Source: a virus. From it: a stretch of 23,392 bases of DNA. This document shows positions 2,833-8,948 of the stretch, in pieces (the first letter of the stretch is position 1; each line of letters starts with the position of its first letter). The notes beneath the pieces are model-generated. The model worked only from the letters and a program-made list of their open reading frames with translations. It was not told where the DNA came from and ran no database searches. The stretch lies in the UHGV virus genome UHGV-1348655; one strand, given 5' to 3'. The position numbers and the translations under genes are program-made.

Positions 2833-3051
2833 ATGTACTTGACACTTCAGGAGTGGAACGCACGCCAGCGACGCCCAAGAAGCCTTGAAACAGTTCGTCG
2901 ATGGGTACGCGAGTGCAGGATATTCCCTCCTCCGGTTAAGGATGGAAGAGAGTATCTGTTCCACGAATCAGCGGTAAAGGTTGACTTAAATCGACCAGTA
3001 ACAGGTAGCCTTTTGAAGAGGATCAGAAATGGGAAGAAGGCGAAGTCATGA
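2833..3051 (+). CDS. xis: Excisionase Xis, lambda type, 72 aa
   Basis: Sequence MYLTLQEWNARQRRPRSLETVRRWVRECRIFPPPVKDGREYLFHESAVKVDL matches lambda Xis; overlaps the int start as in lambda. Confidence 0.9.
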   Translation: MYLTLQEWNARQRRPRSLETVRRWVRECRIFPPPVKDGREYLFHESAVKVDLNRPVTGSLLKRIRNGKKAKS

Positions 3052-4099
3052 GCGCCGGGATTTACCCCCTAACCTTTATATAAGAAACAATGGATATTAC
3101 TGCTACAGGGACCAAAGGACGGGTAAAGAGTTTGGATTAGGCAGAGACAGGCGAATCGCAATCACTGAAGCCATACAGGCCAACATTGAGTTATTTTCAG
3201 GACACAAACACAAGCCTCTGACAGCGAGAATCAACAGTGATAATTCCGTTACGTTACATTCATGGCTTGATCGCTACGAAAAAATCCTGGCCAGCAGAGG
3301 AATCAAGCAGAAGACACTCATAAATTACATGAGCAAAATTAAAGCAATAAGGAGGGGTCTGCCTGATGCTCCACTTGAAGACATCACCACAAAAGAAATT
3401 GCGGCAATGCTCAATGGATACATAGACGAGGGCAAGGCGGCATCAGCCAAGTTAATCAGATCAACACTGAGCGATGCATTCCGAGAGGCTATAGCTGAAG
3501 GCCATATAACAACAAACCCGGTCGCAGCCACTCGCGCTGCAAAATCAGAGGTAAGGAGATCAAGACTTACGGCTGACGAATACCTGAAAATTTATCAAGC
3601 AGCAGAATCATCACCATGTTGGCTTAGACTTGCAATGGAACTGGCTGTTGTTACCGGGCAGCGAGTTGGTGATTTATGCGAAATGAAGTGGTCTGATATC
3701 GTAGATGGATATCTTTATGTCGAGCAAAGCAAAACAGGCGTAAAAATTGCCATCCCAACAGCATTGCATGTTGATGCTCTCGGAATATCAATGAAGGAAA
3801 CACTTGATAAATGCAAAGAGATTCTTGGCGGAGAAACCATAATTGCATCTACTCGTCGCGAACCGCTTTCATCCGGCACAGTATCAAGGTATTTTATGCG
3901 CGCACGAAAAGCATCAGGTCTTTCCTTCGAAGGGGATCCGCCTACCTTTCACGAGTTGCGCAGTTTGTCTGCAAGACTCTATGAGAAGCAGATAAGCGAT
4001 AAGTTTGCTCAACATCTTCTCGGGCATAAGTCGGACACCATGGCATCACAGTATCGTGATGACAGAGGCAGGGAGTGGGACAAAATTGAAATCAAATAA
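3029..4099 (+). CDS. int: Tyrosine integrase Int, lambda type, 356 aa
   Basis: Near-identical to lambda Int from MGRRRSHERRDLPPNLYIRNNGYYCYRD to the C-terminal catalytic region (HELRSLSARLY ... LLGHKSDTMASQY). Confidence 0.95.
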   Translation: MGRRRSHERRDLPPNLYIRNNGYYCYRDQRTGKEFGLGRDRRIAITEAIQANIELFSGHKHKPLTARINSDNSVTLHSWLDRYEKILASRGIKQKTLINYMSKIKAIRRGLPDAPLEDITTKEIAAMLNGYIDEGKAASAKLIRSTLSDAFREAIAEGHITTNPVAATRAAKSEVRRSRLTADEYLKIYQAAESSPCWLRLAMELAVVTGQRVGDLCEMKWSDIVDGYLYVEQSKTGVKIAIPTALHVDALGISMKETLDKCKEILGGETIIASTRREPLSSGTVSRYFMRARKASGLSFEGDPPTFHELRSLSARLYEKQISDKFAQHLLGHKSDTMASQYRDDRGREWDKIEIK

Positions 4100-4330
4100 T
4101 GATTTTATTTTGACTGATAGTGACCTGTTCGTTGCAACAAATTGATAAGCAATGCTTTTTTATAATGCCAACTTAGTATAAAAAAGCTGAACGCGAAACA
4201 GCAAAAGACAATAATATCAATGTGTTACAATGCATTTAGTCTAAAAGATAGACTGCATAATGCTACAAAACACAACATATCCAGTCACTATGAATCAACT
4301 ACTTAGATGGTATTAGTGACCTGTAACAGA
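4100..4330. other. Intact attP (P' arm, 15-bp core 4173-4187, P arm)
   Basis: The core is the reverse complement of the lambda core GCTTTTTTATACTAA. The int-proximal arm (4100-4172) matches lambda exactly as I recall it; the distal arm (4188-4330) is homologous but diverged centrally and keeps CAGTCACTAT-type arm sites. Confidence 0.8.
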
Positions 4331-4377: not shown

Positions 4378-4671
4378 AACTCACTGGGTTAGTTGAATTT
4401 ACAACCATGCTCAGTATCTCGATAAGCGCAGAGAAATGATGCAGTGGTGGGCGGATTGGCTTGATGAGAAGGTGTCATAGGGAAGCAGAACAAAGCCTTG
4501 CAAACCGATGCAAAGCATTGTGTGTACCACGTTACAGTTAATGAAAAACAATCATAAATGTCAATGATGTACATCTGAGAACCACATGCATAAAACATGA
4601 TTTCATTGGCTGATCAGAAGCTTCTCAAGTGCTACACTATCCAAGTCTGTTTTCGTCACGGTTAACTGACA

Positions 4672-4709
4672 AACAGGGCCCCGGCTATGAGAGTAGTTGG
4701 GGCCCTGTT
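4672..4709 (-). terminator. Hairpin 30 bp downstream of the membrane-enzyme gene (candidate terminator)
   Basis: AACAGGGCCCC ... GGGGCCCTGTT, an 11-bp GC-rich stem; on the minus strand it is followed by TTTGTCAGTT. Confidence 0.5.
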
Positions 4710-4739
4710 ATTACAACAAGGTTAAACAATCTATAATCT

Positions 4740-6197
4740 TTATTGCATGATATCTTTTGAAGACAACCCGTTTACAATTGGATTATATTGATAAAGCTTT
4801 TTGTCATATGACATTATCATTGGGTTATCATTTTCTTTAGAAAAAATATCATAGTTATCTATTGTTAAATTTGTCTTGACACCAATCCATGAAGCAAAAA
4901 AGTCAATAAAATGCTTGGCGCTTCTAGTTGTATCTGCCATTGTTGTTTCTTTGTCATCGCTAGAGGCAACAAAAAATGGAACTTGGTATGATTGTTTTTT
5001 TGATGCATCTCTTCTTACCTTATAACCATTGCCATCTTTAATCATATTTAATCCATGATCTGAAAAATACACCATGGAAAATGATTCACCAGAATCCTCA
5101 AGATATGTATATATATCCTTAATGAAATCATCTGTTTTGTTGTAAGTTGAAAGGTAGCAATTAACAACCCTGCCACTTTTTGTTTTATATTTTATTGGAT
5201 AATCAAACAATCGATCGCAAGGATATTCATGAGATCCAACAATATGAACAAATATAACTTTTCTTTCTTTTAGTTTTATCTTCTCTTTTATTACTGGAAG
5301 CAATCCGAAGTCATCAGCCTTGTTAAAATATTTAAATTTCGCATAGTTAGATATTCTGCTTGATGCAATATTATACTGCCCTGAATAACCTTGTGATGAT
5401 ATCCAAAAAGTATTAAGTCCAGCCATGTTTGCTAGCTCAACAATGTTGTCCTGCTCATAAACAGAACCATTATCACTTGTTTTAGACAGTATTCTTGGTA
5501 CGGCTAGAGTTGTGTTTATTGCTGTAGTTATATAATTACTAATGTATCTCTTGGGGATTGAGTCTATAAACGGTGTCGTATCTAAACTAAACCCATATAG
5601 CGACATGAAATCCTTTCTCATGGACTCACCAATAACAACAACATATGTATTATACTTTGGTGTAATCTTATTTTTTATCAACCAAGAACTTGCAGGAAGA
5701 TTATCTACCTGTAGGCTTTTATATTCCTTAATGATATCTGAAACCAACCCACCGAATATCATAAAGTAGCATGAAGATGTAATTAGTAGCAATGGGGTTA
5801 ATGTTATTAAAATTAATTTTCTTCTTATTTTTTTCTGTTCATAATTGAATGCATATATGATCGTGAAAACAAAAAGAAAAACTGAACAGACCATTATTAT
5901 TAAGTGCGTTGTTGGGATTGACATATGGAACTGTATTGTCTCGCTTATGTCTGTAGCAAGAAGTACGTCCAATAGTGACGGCTTTAATAGTCCTTTTGTT
6001 AGAATTGCATCTGGAATCAATACGCTAAGTAATATTCCAAAAATTAGCAATATAGTTCTTGGTATTTTAAACAAAGATAAAGAAAATAAAGTTATAAACG
6101 ATAGAAATAAAATTGATATATTTATGCTGCCAATTGCTATATATTGCATCAAATATGATAGCACAAAACTACATATTGCTATTAATAACAACTTCAC
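4740..6197 (-). CDS. Inner-membrane sulfatase-superfamily enzyme, phosphoethanolamine-transferase-like (EptA/MCR/YhbX-type), 485 aa
   Basis: GTG start at 6197 with AGAGGA 8 nt upstream. About five hydrophobic helices in the first ~160 residues, then a soluble domain with motifs VVVIGESMRKD, VHIVGSHEYP and YFSDHG that resemble the metal and nucleophile motifs of that family. The gene is visibly much more AT-rich than the phage backbone. Confidence 0.8.
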   Translation of the reverse strand: MKLLLIAICSFVLSYLMQYIAIGSINISILFLSFITLFSLSLFKIPRTILLIFGILLSVLIPDAILTKGLLKPSLLDVLLATDISETIQFHMSIPTTHLIIMVCSVFLFVFTIIYAFNYEQKKIRRKLILITLTPLLLITSSCYFMIFGGLVSDIIKEYKSLQVDNLPASSWLIKNKITPKYNTYVVVIGESMRKDFMSLYGFSLDTTPFIDSIPKRYISNYITTAINTTLAVPRILSKTSDNGSVYEQDNIVELANMAGLNTFWISSQGYSGQYNIASSRISNYAKFKYFNKADDFGLLPVIKEKIKLKERKVIFVHIVGSHEYPCDRLFDYPIKYKTKSGRVVNCYLSTYNKTDDFIKDIYTYLEDSGESFSMVYFSDHGLNMIKDGNGYKVRRDASKKQSYQVPFFVASSDDKETTMADTTRSAKHFIDFFASWIGVKTNLTIDNYDIFSKENDNPMIMSYDKKLYQYNPIVNGLSSKDIMQ

Positions 6198-6237
6198 TAA
6201 TACAGTCCTCTGTTAAGGAATATTAAATAGTGATGTT

Positions 6238-6243
6238 ATTATA
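6238..6243 (-). promoter_or_regulatory. Candidate -10 hexamer (TATAAT on minus strand) for the membrane-enzyme gene
   Basis: The minus strand reads GAGTATAAT about 40 bp upstream of the GTG start; the -35 element is weak or ambiguous. Confidence 0.3.
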
Positions 6244-6402
6244 CTCATTTTTTATAGTAATGAAAGATTCATTTTAAATGACATTCACATTTGATCGCCT
6301 TCTCCTACTGTAGGAGCGAGAAGGCGTGCTTAGTTGCTATAATTACTGGTGATGCTGCCAACTTACTGATTTAGTGTATGATGGTGTTTTTGAGGTGCTC
6401 CA

Positions 6403-6678
6403 GTGGCTTCTGTTTCTATCAGCTGTCCCTCCTGTTCAGCTACTGACGGGGTGGTGCGTAACGGCAAAAGCACCGCCGGACATCAGCGCTATCTCTGCTC
6501 TCACTGCCGTAAAACATGGCAACTGCAGTTCACTTACACCGCTTCTCAACCCGGTACGCACCAGAAAATCATTGATATGGCCATGAATGGCGTTGGATGC
6601 CGGGCAACAGCCCGCATTATGGGCGTTGGCCTCAACACGATTTTACGTCACTTAAAAAACTCAGGCCGCAGTCGGTAA
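6403..6678 (+). CDS. insA: IS1 InsA, 91 aa
   Basis: [43 protein letters not shown] is the canonical InsA sequence. Confidence 0.95.
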
Positions 6679-7100
6679 CCTCGCGCATACAGCCTGGCAG
6701 TGACGTCATCGTCTGCGCGGAAATGGACGAACAGTGGGGCTATGTCGGGGCTAAATCGCGCCAGCGCTGGCTGTTTTACGCGTATGACAGGCTACGGAAG
6801 ACGGTTGTTGCGCACGTATTCGGTGAACGCACTATGGCGACGCTGGGGCGTCTTATGAGCCTGCTGTCACCCTTTGACGTGGTGATATGGATGACGGATG
6901 GCTGGCCGCTTTATGAATCACGCCTGAAGGGAGAACTGCACGTTATCAGCAAGCGATATACGCAGCGCATTGAGCGGCATAACCTGAATCTGAGGCAACA
7001 TCTGGCAAGGCTGGGCAGGAAGTCACTGTCGTTCTCAAAATCGGTGGAGCTGCATGACAAAGTCATCGGGCATTATCCGAACATAAAACACTATCAGTAA
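6597..7100 (+). CDS. insB: IS1 InsB frame (transposase is made as InsAB' by a -1 frameshift)
   Basis: Canonical InsB reading frame overlapping the insA 3' end; the A-run frameshift site lies in the overlap. Confidence 0.9.
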
Positions 7101-7127
7101 GTTGGAGTCATTACCTAATTACTTAAT

Positions 7128-8948
7128 CTATTTTATTGACAGAACGCCAGATAAGGATATTTGTCTAGCAGAGCCAGATGATACATCTGTCCATCTGGCA
7201 TATCTTGTTGTTCCGTCGATGAAAGTTAATAAAAATTTAGCCGTGTTATCTGACACCACCTCTAAGGAAACATCATATAATTGTTTAGCTGAGTTTGCTG
7301 TAGCGTAGTAAAATGCGTACAGGCCACCATTAACTGTACCTCCAAATCCAGATTTAATGCCATAAACAGGAGCTATATTAACAATTACATCACCTGTTGC
7401 TGACGGTATAGCTGTTACTGTTGTAGCTATGGAAAAACTTAATGTGTTATACCATATTCCAGAGTTCAGAGTTTGGCCCGACATCGTTACACCAGCAGCA
7501 CTTGCAAGGACAGCTCCAGAGTTAGGTCCAATGGTCATTCCTGTACGCATTTTTTCAGCATATCCGTAGCCCGAGAAGTGATTACGAGCTATACCGGAAG
7601 CGCCTTCGAAAGATACCCAAAGATCTGTAGCATAATCGGGATTACTTACGCTAAAGTTATGGAATGAAGAACCCTGTGACGTGGTTATCATAGGTAACGT
7701 ACTTTTTCGAGGTGTGTCATTTTTAGACGCGGCAATAAGTACATCCGTAAAACTGGTATCCCACGCATCACAAATAAGCCCCACCCCACCGTTACTTCTA
7801 GACGGAACACTACCAGTGTTGCGCCTAACTGGAGTATCTAGGATTAAGTTAGAATACGAGGTGAAACCACCATTCTCAGTAACCCATAGCCCTACGTGCA
7901 TTTTCCCCATGACACCGACTAAATTATCTACGGTATTACCCCAAGGATGGAACTTATCTAAAGAGTTACCGGATTTAATAACCTTACCACCGTATGCGTA
8001 ACCAACTGGTGAAATCTCTGAATACCAGCCGTCCGTACATTTAATATGTAGGCCGATTGACTGGTCGGCTCGCGTATTTGCCACTACCATAGTGAATTTA
8101 GACGCTTTACCTTCGTAGCAAAATTCGTCCTCAAAACCGCCGTTGTTGAACCCAATTATTGCGCCGCCTTCGTATGTGTATCCGTAGCAATGTTGCACCC
8201 TAACGCCGATAGCGTTAATTCCTACCGTGTAATCCTGCGCCTCTAAACGCAAGCCGTAACAGTTAGTTTTGTTAGCTAGCGTAAAATGATCGGAGTTGTC
8301 GTAAGATGGGGTATCGGCACCACCATCCATTATATACGCATATGTTGAACTCAAACCGGCAGGAACAATTGCACGATGATTATTCCAGTAAACAGTAACC
8401 CCAGGCTTATGCATGATAGGAATTGTACTAAAAATGATGTCTTCATTCACATAAAGAACGCCGCCGCCACTTTCTGATATCTCAGTCATAGCTGCGTTAA
8501 ATGCATCTTCTCCTATTCCCCATCCGCGAAGGTCGCCTTCATCTTTCCATTTTTGTATAAGGGATGGAATAAGAAAATAGCCATCAGGTCCAGCAAGAAC
8601 CTGTCTTAGTTGGTCAGGGTCATACTTCAGCACATTCGGAAAATTAAACTGCTGCGCACCGTACGCATCATACACAGCCATAGAATGTCCTTGCACAGTA
8701 ACGAACTTGGCAATCTGTCCGTTATATACCGGATATCCAGCAGCGTTAATGATGATTGGTTGCGAAACAGGAACGTGAGAACCGTCTTCGTTCTCCACAT
8801 AAACCTGAATCTGGTTTTCAGGATTTACAGGGTCAGTGTCAATTTTACCGATATAAATTTTGCCATTGGCTACGGCTTTAAAAGAACGCGCCATAGTGAA
8901 GAGTTGCGAAGGCATCGATACGATCACATTGGCTGTAATGTCTGTCAT
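7128..8948 (-). CDS. Tailspike protein, 606 aa: P22-type N-terminal head-binding domain plus a divergent receptor-binding domain
   Basis: The N-terminus [46 protein letters not shown] ... VLKYDPDQ matches the P22/Sf6 tailspike head-binding domain; the remainder is unrelated to P22 gp9. GGAG lies 8 nt upstream of the ATG. Confidence 0.85.

Follow-up and report, generated by a model that had tools for sequence, protein, structure and literature searches.

The window, by which is meant the whole 23,392-nucleotide stretch analyzed here, is a P22-like E. coli phage whose structural genes share about 96% identity with their counterparts in phage IME10 and its relatives. The late genes lie on the minus strand, with the tailspike gene last; beyond it, in the position of a lysogenic-conversion gene, comes the gene for a membrane enzyme, and a complete insertion sequence, IS1, lies between the two (Table 1). 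Downstream of the enzyme gene come the lambda attP core and a gene for a lambda-type integrase (3029-4099). The attP core identifies the window as the unintegrated form of the phage.

Table 1. Features at and around the IS1 insertion, in window coordinates
Feature	Position	Strand	Remarks
Lambda attP core GCTTTTTTATACTAA	4173-4187	-	
Cassette (receptor-binding part of tailspike, spacer, enzyme gene)	4603-8549	-	colinear with IS1-free Hafnia/Yersinia loci, 89-90% nucleotide identity
Phosphoethanolamine-transferase-like membrane enzyme gene, 485 aa	4740-6197	-	conversion-gene position
Candidate own promoter of enzyme gene, perfect TATAAT	6238-6243	-	weak -35 CTTTCA, 17-bp spacer
G+C-rich RNA hairpin, 11 pairs, no T-run	6296-6326	-	-18 kcal/mol, z = -2.1
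8-bp target duplication TAATTACT, left copy	6340-6347	.	
Complete IS1 (IS1A-family isoform), 768 bp	6348-7115	+	transposase genes opposed to tailspike and downstream gene
IS1 left inverted repeat (IRL) GGTGATGCTGCCAACTTACTGAT	6348-6370	+	
IS1's own promoter-like site, CTGCCA-16-TATGAT	6355-6382	+	inside IRL
insA, 91 aa	6403-6678	+	open; Pfam Zn_ribbon_InsA and HTH_Tnp_IS1, both full length
insB frame, 167 aa	6597-7100	+	open; Pfam DDE_Tnp_IS1, full length
IS1 right inverted repeat (IRR) GGTAATGACTCCAACTTACTGAT	7093-7115	+	
8-bp target duplication TAATTACT, right copy	7116-7123	.	single copy in empty-site loci
P22-type tailspike, 606 aa	7128-8948	-	stop 12 bp from IS1 right end

The tailspike begins with the N-terminal head-binding domain (PF09008, residues 1-113, E = 2.6e-65), and its gene has 43% G+C overall; an exact look-up of the window's tailspike protein matched no record. 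The enzyme has hydrophobic stretches within residues 1-156, followed by a Sulfatase fold (PF00884) at residues 184-439. This layout, an N-terminal membrane part and a Sulfatase fold, is shared with phosphoethanolamine transferases of the EptA/CptA/MCR type, and 'phosphoethanolamine transferase' is the source label of its relatives. Against the curated cut-offs for EptA, CptA, EptB and MCR (404-1100) its best score is 63 bits, below all of them. It is the position of the gene only that suggests the O antigen as the putative target. The gene stands out by its base composition, with 30.7% G+C as against 47.7% for the whole window. No relatives of the enzyme were found in 50,697 phage records, and a search with the enzyme protein for related loci in genome contigs and viral contigs found none.

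By every structural criterion tested, the element between these genes is IS1. The terminal repeats of IS1 are imperfect and about 23 bp long (GGTGATGCTGCC... / GGTAATGACTCC...); those in the window are of this kind, with 19 of 23 positions matching between left and right, and both ends are the same as in the closest E. coli copy, to which InsA is identical as well. The three Pfam domains of IS1 (PF03811, PF12759 and PF03400) are all matched at full length; InsB scores 145 bits against NCBIfam transpos_IS1 (NF033558), for which the cut-off is 100. The A6C slippery motif, TTAAAAAAC, is found at 6652-6660, with insB in the -1 frame after insA; a -1 fusion of the two frames reads through to yield a 232-aa InsAB' transposase, and the same 232-aa product is called in a locus described below, L012. 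The initial annotation of this DNA had recognized a complete IS1 with both ends and intact insA and insB, lying between a tailspike gene and a membrane-enzyme gene in conversion position. All of this is confirmed: the element has the length of 768 bp, canonical ends and open frames, and its neighbors are a P22-type tailspike gene and a gene in lysogenic-conversion position.

The element has 53% G+C. Its closest matches among E. coli chromosomal copies, annotated as IS1A family, agree with it at 99.5% identity; for the full-length IS1 copies carried by phages P1 and SfIV the identity is 96.9-97.7%. It resembles the IS1A/IS1R-type copies of E. coli K-12 and phage P1 in its length of 768 bp, its ends, its insA/insB organization and its A6C motif, at 97-99.5% DNA identity, and, as here, those copies have a short target duplication in A+T-rich DNA. 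It differs from the known copies in a lineage-specific Leu-to-Pro change in InsB (window 7078), common to the window and L012 and absent from the closest chromosomal copies, and in its new location, the spacer between a tailspike and a conversion gene. Like the window element, the P1 copy is resident in a viable phage genome; its repeat is the 9-bp CAGAGGGCA, whereas the duplication here has 8 bp instead of the more usual 9, and both lengths have been reported for IS1 (PMC12428005). The serotype-converting Shigella phage SfIV provides another instance of an insertion sequence in a non-essential spacer of a temperate, O-antigen-modifying phage: it carries a complete IS1, 97.7% identical to ours. 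That copy is found immediately after the Q antiterminator gene, away from the conversion genes, and is an independent insertion. In the window, then, a known element behaves normally at a new site; resident IS1 in temperate phages is already known.

The direct repeat that flanks the element is perfect over 8 bp and does not extend to 9. From the local base composition, the chance of an 8/8 match at two fixed positions is about 4e-5, and chance identity is rejected on that ground. The target region is extremely poor in G+C: 8% in the 12 bp beside the right end of IS1, and 31% in the spacer. IS1 reportedly prefers A+T-rich targets. A second sequence resembling an IS1 end was found nowhere in the window at up to 6 mismatches. 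The initial annotation had given the repeat as perfect, the distance from IS1 to the tailspike stop as 12 bp and that to the start of the membrane enzyme as about 150 bp; the repeat and both distances were right, the former distance running from the right end to the stop codon at 7128-7130 on the minus strand, and the latter amounting to exactly 150 bp from the left end to the GTG at 6197.

It had also taken the element to have inserted in situ, and proposed a comparison with related genomes that lack IS1 at this position. The predicted empty site is indeed present, in nine IS1-free prophage loci (L022-L030) from Hafnia paralvei, Yersinia kristensenii and metagenomes, organism names here being source labels. 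In these loci the 3' end of the tailspike gene and the enzyme gene correspond to the window's, and 154 bp lie between the tailspike stop and the gene start; this is the window's interval of 930 bp less the 768 bp of IS1 and the 8 bp of one repeat copy. The sequence of the empty site agrees with the prediction at 179 of 187 positions (8 differ). The octamer is exact in one locus, L030 (AGTAATTA on the gene strand), and reads AGCAATTA in the other empty loci. A single 3.17-kb alignment of 89-90% nucleotide identity, from window 8549 to about 4600, crosses the junction uninterrupted. The colinear, IS1-free loci with their single octamer bear out the in situ reading: IS1 entered a pre-existing junction of tailspike, spacer and gene by simple insertion. 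The N-terminal domain of the tailspikes in these nine loci differs from the window's, and every empty site found comes from a metagenome or from an assembly of another genus, the phages concerned having other tail types.

The nine loci were found by way of the list of the enzyme's 90% protein cluster, followed by look-ups of its Hafnia and Yersinia members. Exact-pattern scans gave no match, whether for the predicted empty site as a 41-nt pattern in viral contigs, for the same site as a 28-nt pattern in species-representative genomes and JGI metagenomes, or for the hairpin discussed below; they came back blank because the true empty sites carry single-base differences beside the target. An artificial empty-site construct, compared by megablast with 5,426 complete E. 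coli genomes, returned tailspike fragments only; the gene was absent from these genomes.

The distribution of the insertion is quite different in the E. coli samples that do carry the gene. Exact look-up of the 485-aa enzyme found ten contigs from ten samples (L001-L010), which end 176-483 bp upstream of the gene, inside the left end of IS1. The IRL junction, ...GCAGCATCACC/AGTAATTATAGCAAC..., is identical in these ten and in L012. On the tailspike side, the IRR junction is identical in L012, L013 and L014, the contigs of the latter two ending in the right end of IS1. All these contigs together represent 11 distinct samples. The identical IS1 junction is seen in 11/11 E. coli samples with the gene, and no IS1-free allele was found in E. 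coli. The whole element is visible in the window and L012 only; elsewhere at most 333 bp of it is seen, and its completeness is inferred from the assembly breaks. L012 is a 530-kb contig with the complete arrangement, in the order tailspike, AGTAATTA, 768-bp IS1 in the same orientation, AGTAATTA, hairpin, gene; its tailspike is 98% identical in protein to the window's, and the two IS1 copies agree at all but 2 of 768 positions (99.74% identity).

These 11 samples show the insertion in no fewer than four integration contexts and beside two tailspike alleles. The downstream context is the bio operon at the lambda attachment site in L002, L004 and L005: in the first two an attP/attB hybrid junction lies beside the bio operon, and the homology of L005 to the window ends there too. 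L001, and L008 as judged by its homology endpoint, have a 387-aa integrase and then other phage genes, YqaJ and RecT among them. An intS-type integrase is found in L003, L006, L007 and L009, and in L010 as judged by its homology endpoint; in L003 it lies beside yfdC and mlaA. L012 provides the fourth context. The tailspike allele of L014 is only 56-70% identical to the window's in its center and identical over the last 300 nt or so. An identical junction in 11 samples, across varied contexts and alleles, therefore means one old event. The insertion is neither recent nor private to this genome; it is a single old insertion inherited with a recombining cassette.

Recombination has left its marks at both edges of the shared block. 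Its upstream limit falls inside the tailspike gene; its downstream limit varies, lying at window 4490, 4395 or 4169-4181, and at 4396-4480 the window retains the last 27 codons of an intS-type integrase, a remnant of another backbone. Related tailspikes (about 84% identical) precede either convergent gtrCBA genes plus intS, or an acyltransferase gene, and their homology to the window breaks off 18 nt before the tailspike stop. It was homologous recombination rather than IS1 that carried the cassette from one phage backbone to another. Over about 2 kb the E. coli copies share 99.7-99.9% identity among themselves, as against only about 90% with the IS1-free alleles; near-identity within E. coli, set against this distance to the empty alleles, places the insertion on the long branch leading to the E. 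coli cassette.

One might instead see IS1 as the vehicle that brought the enzyme gene beside the tailspike, as part of a composite transposon, by one-ended transposition or through a cointegrate, or might take the flanking repeat for an accident. That IS1 accompanies the gene in several chromosomal settings is what one would expect of a vehicle. However, only IS1 is enclosed by the duplication; tailspike and gene are already neighbors, with the identical spacer between them, in the loci that lack IS1; and the window contains no further IS1 end, while the junction on the tailspike side is just as constant as the other. A composite transposon or other IS1-mediated delivery is accordingly rejected, given the single pair of IS1 ends and the colinear flanks of IS1-free loci, and the figure of about 4e-5 speaks against an accidental repeat; together these possibilities retain a practically negligible probability. 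The history that we regard as nearly certain is a different one. An intact IS1 transposed once, by simple insertion, into an extremely A+T-rich 8-bp target in the 154-bp spacer; the event took place on the lineage of the cassette now found in E. coli P22-like prophages; and IS1 has been inherited passively since, as the block of tailspike 3' end, IS1 and enzyme gene was shuffled into different backbones.

What the insertion does to the genes on either side has to be read from the layout of the spacer. In the uninterrupted site, the G+C-rich hairpin starts 25 nt after the tailspike stop; with IS1 in place, it starts about 800 nt after. Across filled and empty alleles, three of three substitutions in the stem keep pairing (U-A, U.G and C-G), and the G.U pairs work on the gene-sense strand only; because of this the hairpin is probably a functional RNA structure, with covariation drawn from three distinct sequences. 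It was also considered as a canonical intrinsic terminator, but not classed as one: a T-run is lacking, which leaves a terminator role uncertain, and the scan makes no call. Downstream of the hairpin lies the TATAAT of the candidate promoter, which is kept in the empty-site loci and followed by AGAGGA and the GTG start. The consensus promoter scan did not call this site, because its -35 is weak.

IS1 left the hairpin, the TATAAT and both neighboring genes intact. Its sole certain physical effect is that 776 bp, with IS1 antisense, now separate the reading frame of the tailspike from the 3' hairpin. In the lysogen, transcription of the enzyme gene would still start from the gene's own promoter, which lies beyond the hairpin, and IS1 would be a tolerated, near-neutral passenger in a dispensable spacer. 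As an account of function this is the most likely reading, and it is put forward with modest confidence: the persistence of IS1 needs no selection, the E. coli copies being 99.7-99.9% identical to each other and only about 90% identical to the empty alleles, but fixation in 11/11 samples through several recombinations is also expected if the IS1 allele were positively selected. Taken as a whole, a single old insertion, passively inherited as a near-neutral passenger, is probably the best explanation.

Three other accounts would give IS1 an active part in expression. The initial annotation had suggested a hybrid promoter at the left end of the element. In such a promoter, an outward -35 within IS1 and a -10 in the flank would drive the enzyme gene. 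A -35 box of this kind in the IS1 inverted repeat has been described (PMC8764528), IS1 is known to form hybrid promoters with a suitably spaced -10 (PMC8764528; PMC9330008), and the window has the corresponding sequence, TTGGCA (6361-6356, minus strand), matching the consensus at 5 of 6 positions. The known fusion promoters of afaA, blaTEM and acrEF use the same outward -35; the window differs from them in having no correctly spaced -10 and in the hairpin that intervenes. At spacers of 16, 17 and 18 bp the candidates are TAGCAA, AGCAAC and GCAACT, with 3, 2 and 2 of 6 matches to TATAAT; the sole 4/6 match needs a 14-bp spacer; the consensus scan calls no site on the minus strand; and any transcript would have to pass the 11-pair, G+C-rich hairpin between site and gene. 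With nothing better than a 3/6 match at 16-18 bp, the suggestion finds no support and is very improbable. A polar or insulating effect on late-operon read-through, which the initial annotation had raised as well, is unlikely too, although it has more to recommend it. IS1, untranslated in this direction, would here provoke Rho-dependent termination, uncoupling the enzyme gene from late transcription or altering the 3' end or the stability of the tailspike mRNA. IS1 is polar in both orientations. The enzyme gene is co-oriented with the tailspike, where relatives have convergent gtrCBA or an acyltransferase gene; the element parts the tailspike stop from its conserved 3' hairpin; and a terminator-like site lies inside IS1 on the minus strand, at 6488-6474. 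Set against this, 2 terminator-like sites were found in the region where 1.9 were expected from shuffled sequence, and the hairpin stood between tailspike and gene before the insertion, so that insulation was probably there already. Late transcription in P22-like phages is antiterminated, moreover, and should override polarity.

The third account supposes that the enzyme gene was silenced, and that IS1 broke the H-NS silencing region upstream and switched this A+T-rich gene, foreign to E. coli, on, as in the silent bgl operon, with selection then fixing the allele in E. coli. At bgl, H-NS repression is lifted by an IS1 or IS5 that has inserted, whichever way round, up to about 200 bp upstream of the promoter (PMC11043490). 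The layout here is comparable: a gene of 30.7% G+C behind a spacer of 31%, in a window of 47.7%, with IS1 lying upstream of the TATAAT by 105 bp and of the predicted transcription start by about 115 bp. What the two loci share is the placing of IS1 within about 200 bp upstream of an A+T-rich gene's promoter; the resemblance is one of layout only, and silencing of the enzyme gene by H-NS is hypothetical. Distribution fits as well, with IS1 in 11/11 E. coli samples and all nine empty sites in Hafnia, Yersinia or metagenomes. Yet a founder effect explains fixation equally well when the E. coli copies are 99.7-99.9% identical, and on the other side of IS1 the A+T content of the tailspike 3' end is no more than moderately high. 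Derepression of this kind is unlikely as well. If true, it would explain why IS1 is in every E. coli copy of the cassette and in none from Hafnia or Yersinia; and, more generally, if IS1 did switch the gene on, this would be a natural case of a phage conversion gene activated by an IS once it had passed from one genus to another.

To what was known of IS1 in temperate phages, the present locus adds that other genera have the site empty, that the insertion is fixed in E. coli, and that a receptor-binding domain and a surface-modifying enzyme are joined in one cassette. It also has a practical side: IS1 breaks short-read assemblies exactly here, and the link between tailspike and enzyme is therefore hidden in most public E. 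coli assemblies. The insertion is of minor importance in itself; its junction is of use as a marker. It follows one cassette as it has passed among E. coli prophages with at least four integration modules, and the same cassette, without IS1, is also found in Hafnia and Yersinia prophages of other tail types.

The position that carries the conversion gene in P22-like phages holds, in the window, a phosphoethanolamine-transferase-like enzyme gene in place of gtr or acetyltransferase genes. The gene has a G+C content of 30.7%; the closest relatives beyond its own cluster reach only ~51% identity, no relatives were found among 50,697 deposited phage genomes, and scores against the EptA, CptA and MCR models lay under all cut-offs. 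The hairpin that precedes the gene keeps its pairing through stem substitutions between alleles (U-A, U.G, C-G), on the gene-sense strand only. It lacks a T-run; therefore, it may act as a 3'-end stabiliser or insulator, not as a classical terminator.

Features of the enzyme-gene and integration regions, in window coordinates
Feature	Position	Strand	Context
Conserved 11-pair hairpin	6296-6326	-	Between tailspike stop and enzyme-gene promoter
Phosphoethanolamine-transferase-like membrane enzyme gene	4740-6197	-	Conversion-gene position of P22-like phage
intS-type integrase 3' end, last 27 codons (IYNHAQYLDKRREMMQWWADWLDEKVS*)	4396-4480	+	Downstream of enzyme gene
Lambda-type integrase of 356 aa, with the exact lambda attP core GCTTTTTTATACTAA	3029-4187		

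The block has been joined to more than one integration module. In this P22-like phage, lambda arm sequence flanks the attP core, and the integrated copies at L002, L004 and L005 lie at the lambda attachment site, adjoining ybhB and bioA; the expected hybrid junction is present in L002 and L004. The 27-codon sequence beyond the enzyme gene recurs in L003, another locus with the same IS1 junction; there it forms the 3' end of intS, which is intact and adjoins yfdC and mlaA. The remnant in the window is a relic of module exchange among backbones. Yet another chromosomal setting for the block (yedK, yeeD, yeeE) is found in L012, a 530-kb E. coli contig. Here (L012 1-4900), the mnt/arc region directly precedes the tailspike gene, IS1 and the enzyme gene, early-left genes (N-like, erf, abc2) lie beyond it, and no head or tail genes intervene; this looks like a deleted, defective prophage.

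The IS1 copy itself carries a Leu-to-Pro change in InsB, eight residues from the C-terminal end (HYLNIKHYQ to HYPNIKHYQ; window 7078, IS1 position 731), which might impair transposition. The copy at the same site in L012 shares the change; neither the closest chromosomal IS1 copies nor the P1 copy has it.

Exchange also reaches into the tailspike gene. The allele on L014 (2911-4731), a contig ending in the IS1 right end, is only 56-70% identical to the window's (7128-8948) in its central part, which resembles the alleles of the gtr-linked relatives; its final ~300 nt are identical to the window's and lead into the same IS1 junction. On this comparison, the mosaic allele points to a crossover within the tailspike gene. 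Homology between the window and the gtr-linked relatives breaks off at CTTATCTGGC, 18 nt ahead of the tailspike stop codon: the final six codons (window 7128-7145) read VLSIK* in the window and IINIK* in the relatives, and everything 3' of the tailspike end is also unlike theirs.

With IS1 left out, window 4603-8549 forms one colinear cassette, made up of the tailspike's receptor-binding part, the hairpin-bearing spacer and the enzyme gene. Its identity to the IS1-free prophages L022-L030 (Hafnia paralvei, Yersinia kristensenii and metagenomes) is 89-90%. The tailspike N-terminus of these prophages is a Tail_spike_N domain, unlike the window's, and their tail modules differ as well (L030 has Baseplate_J and Collar, L022 DUF1833 and NlpC/P60). 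It seems that a receptor-recognising domain travels jointly with a gene possibly modifying the same receptor, across phage types and host genera.
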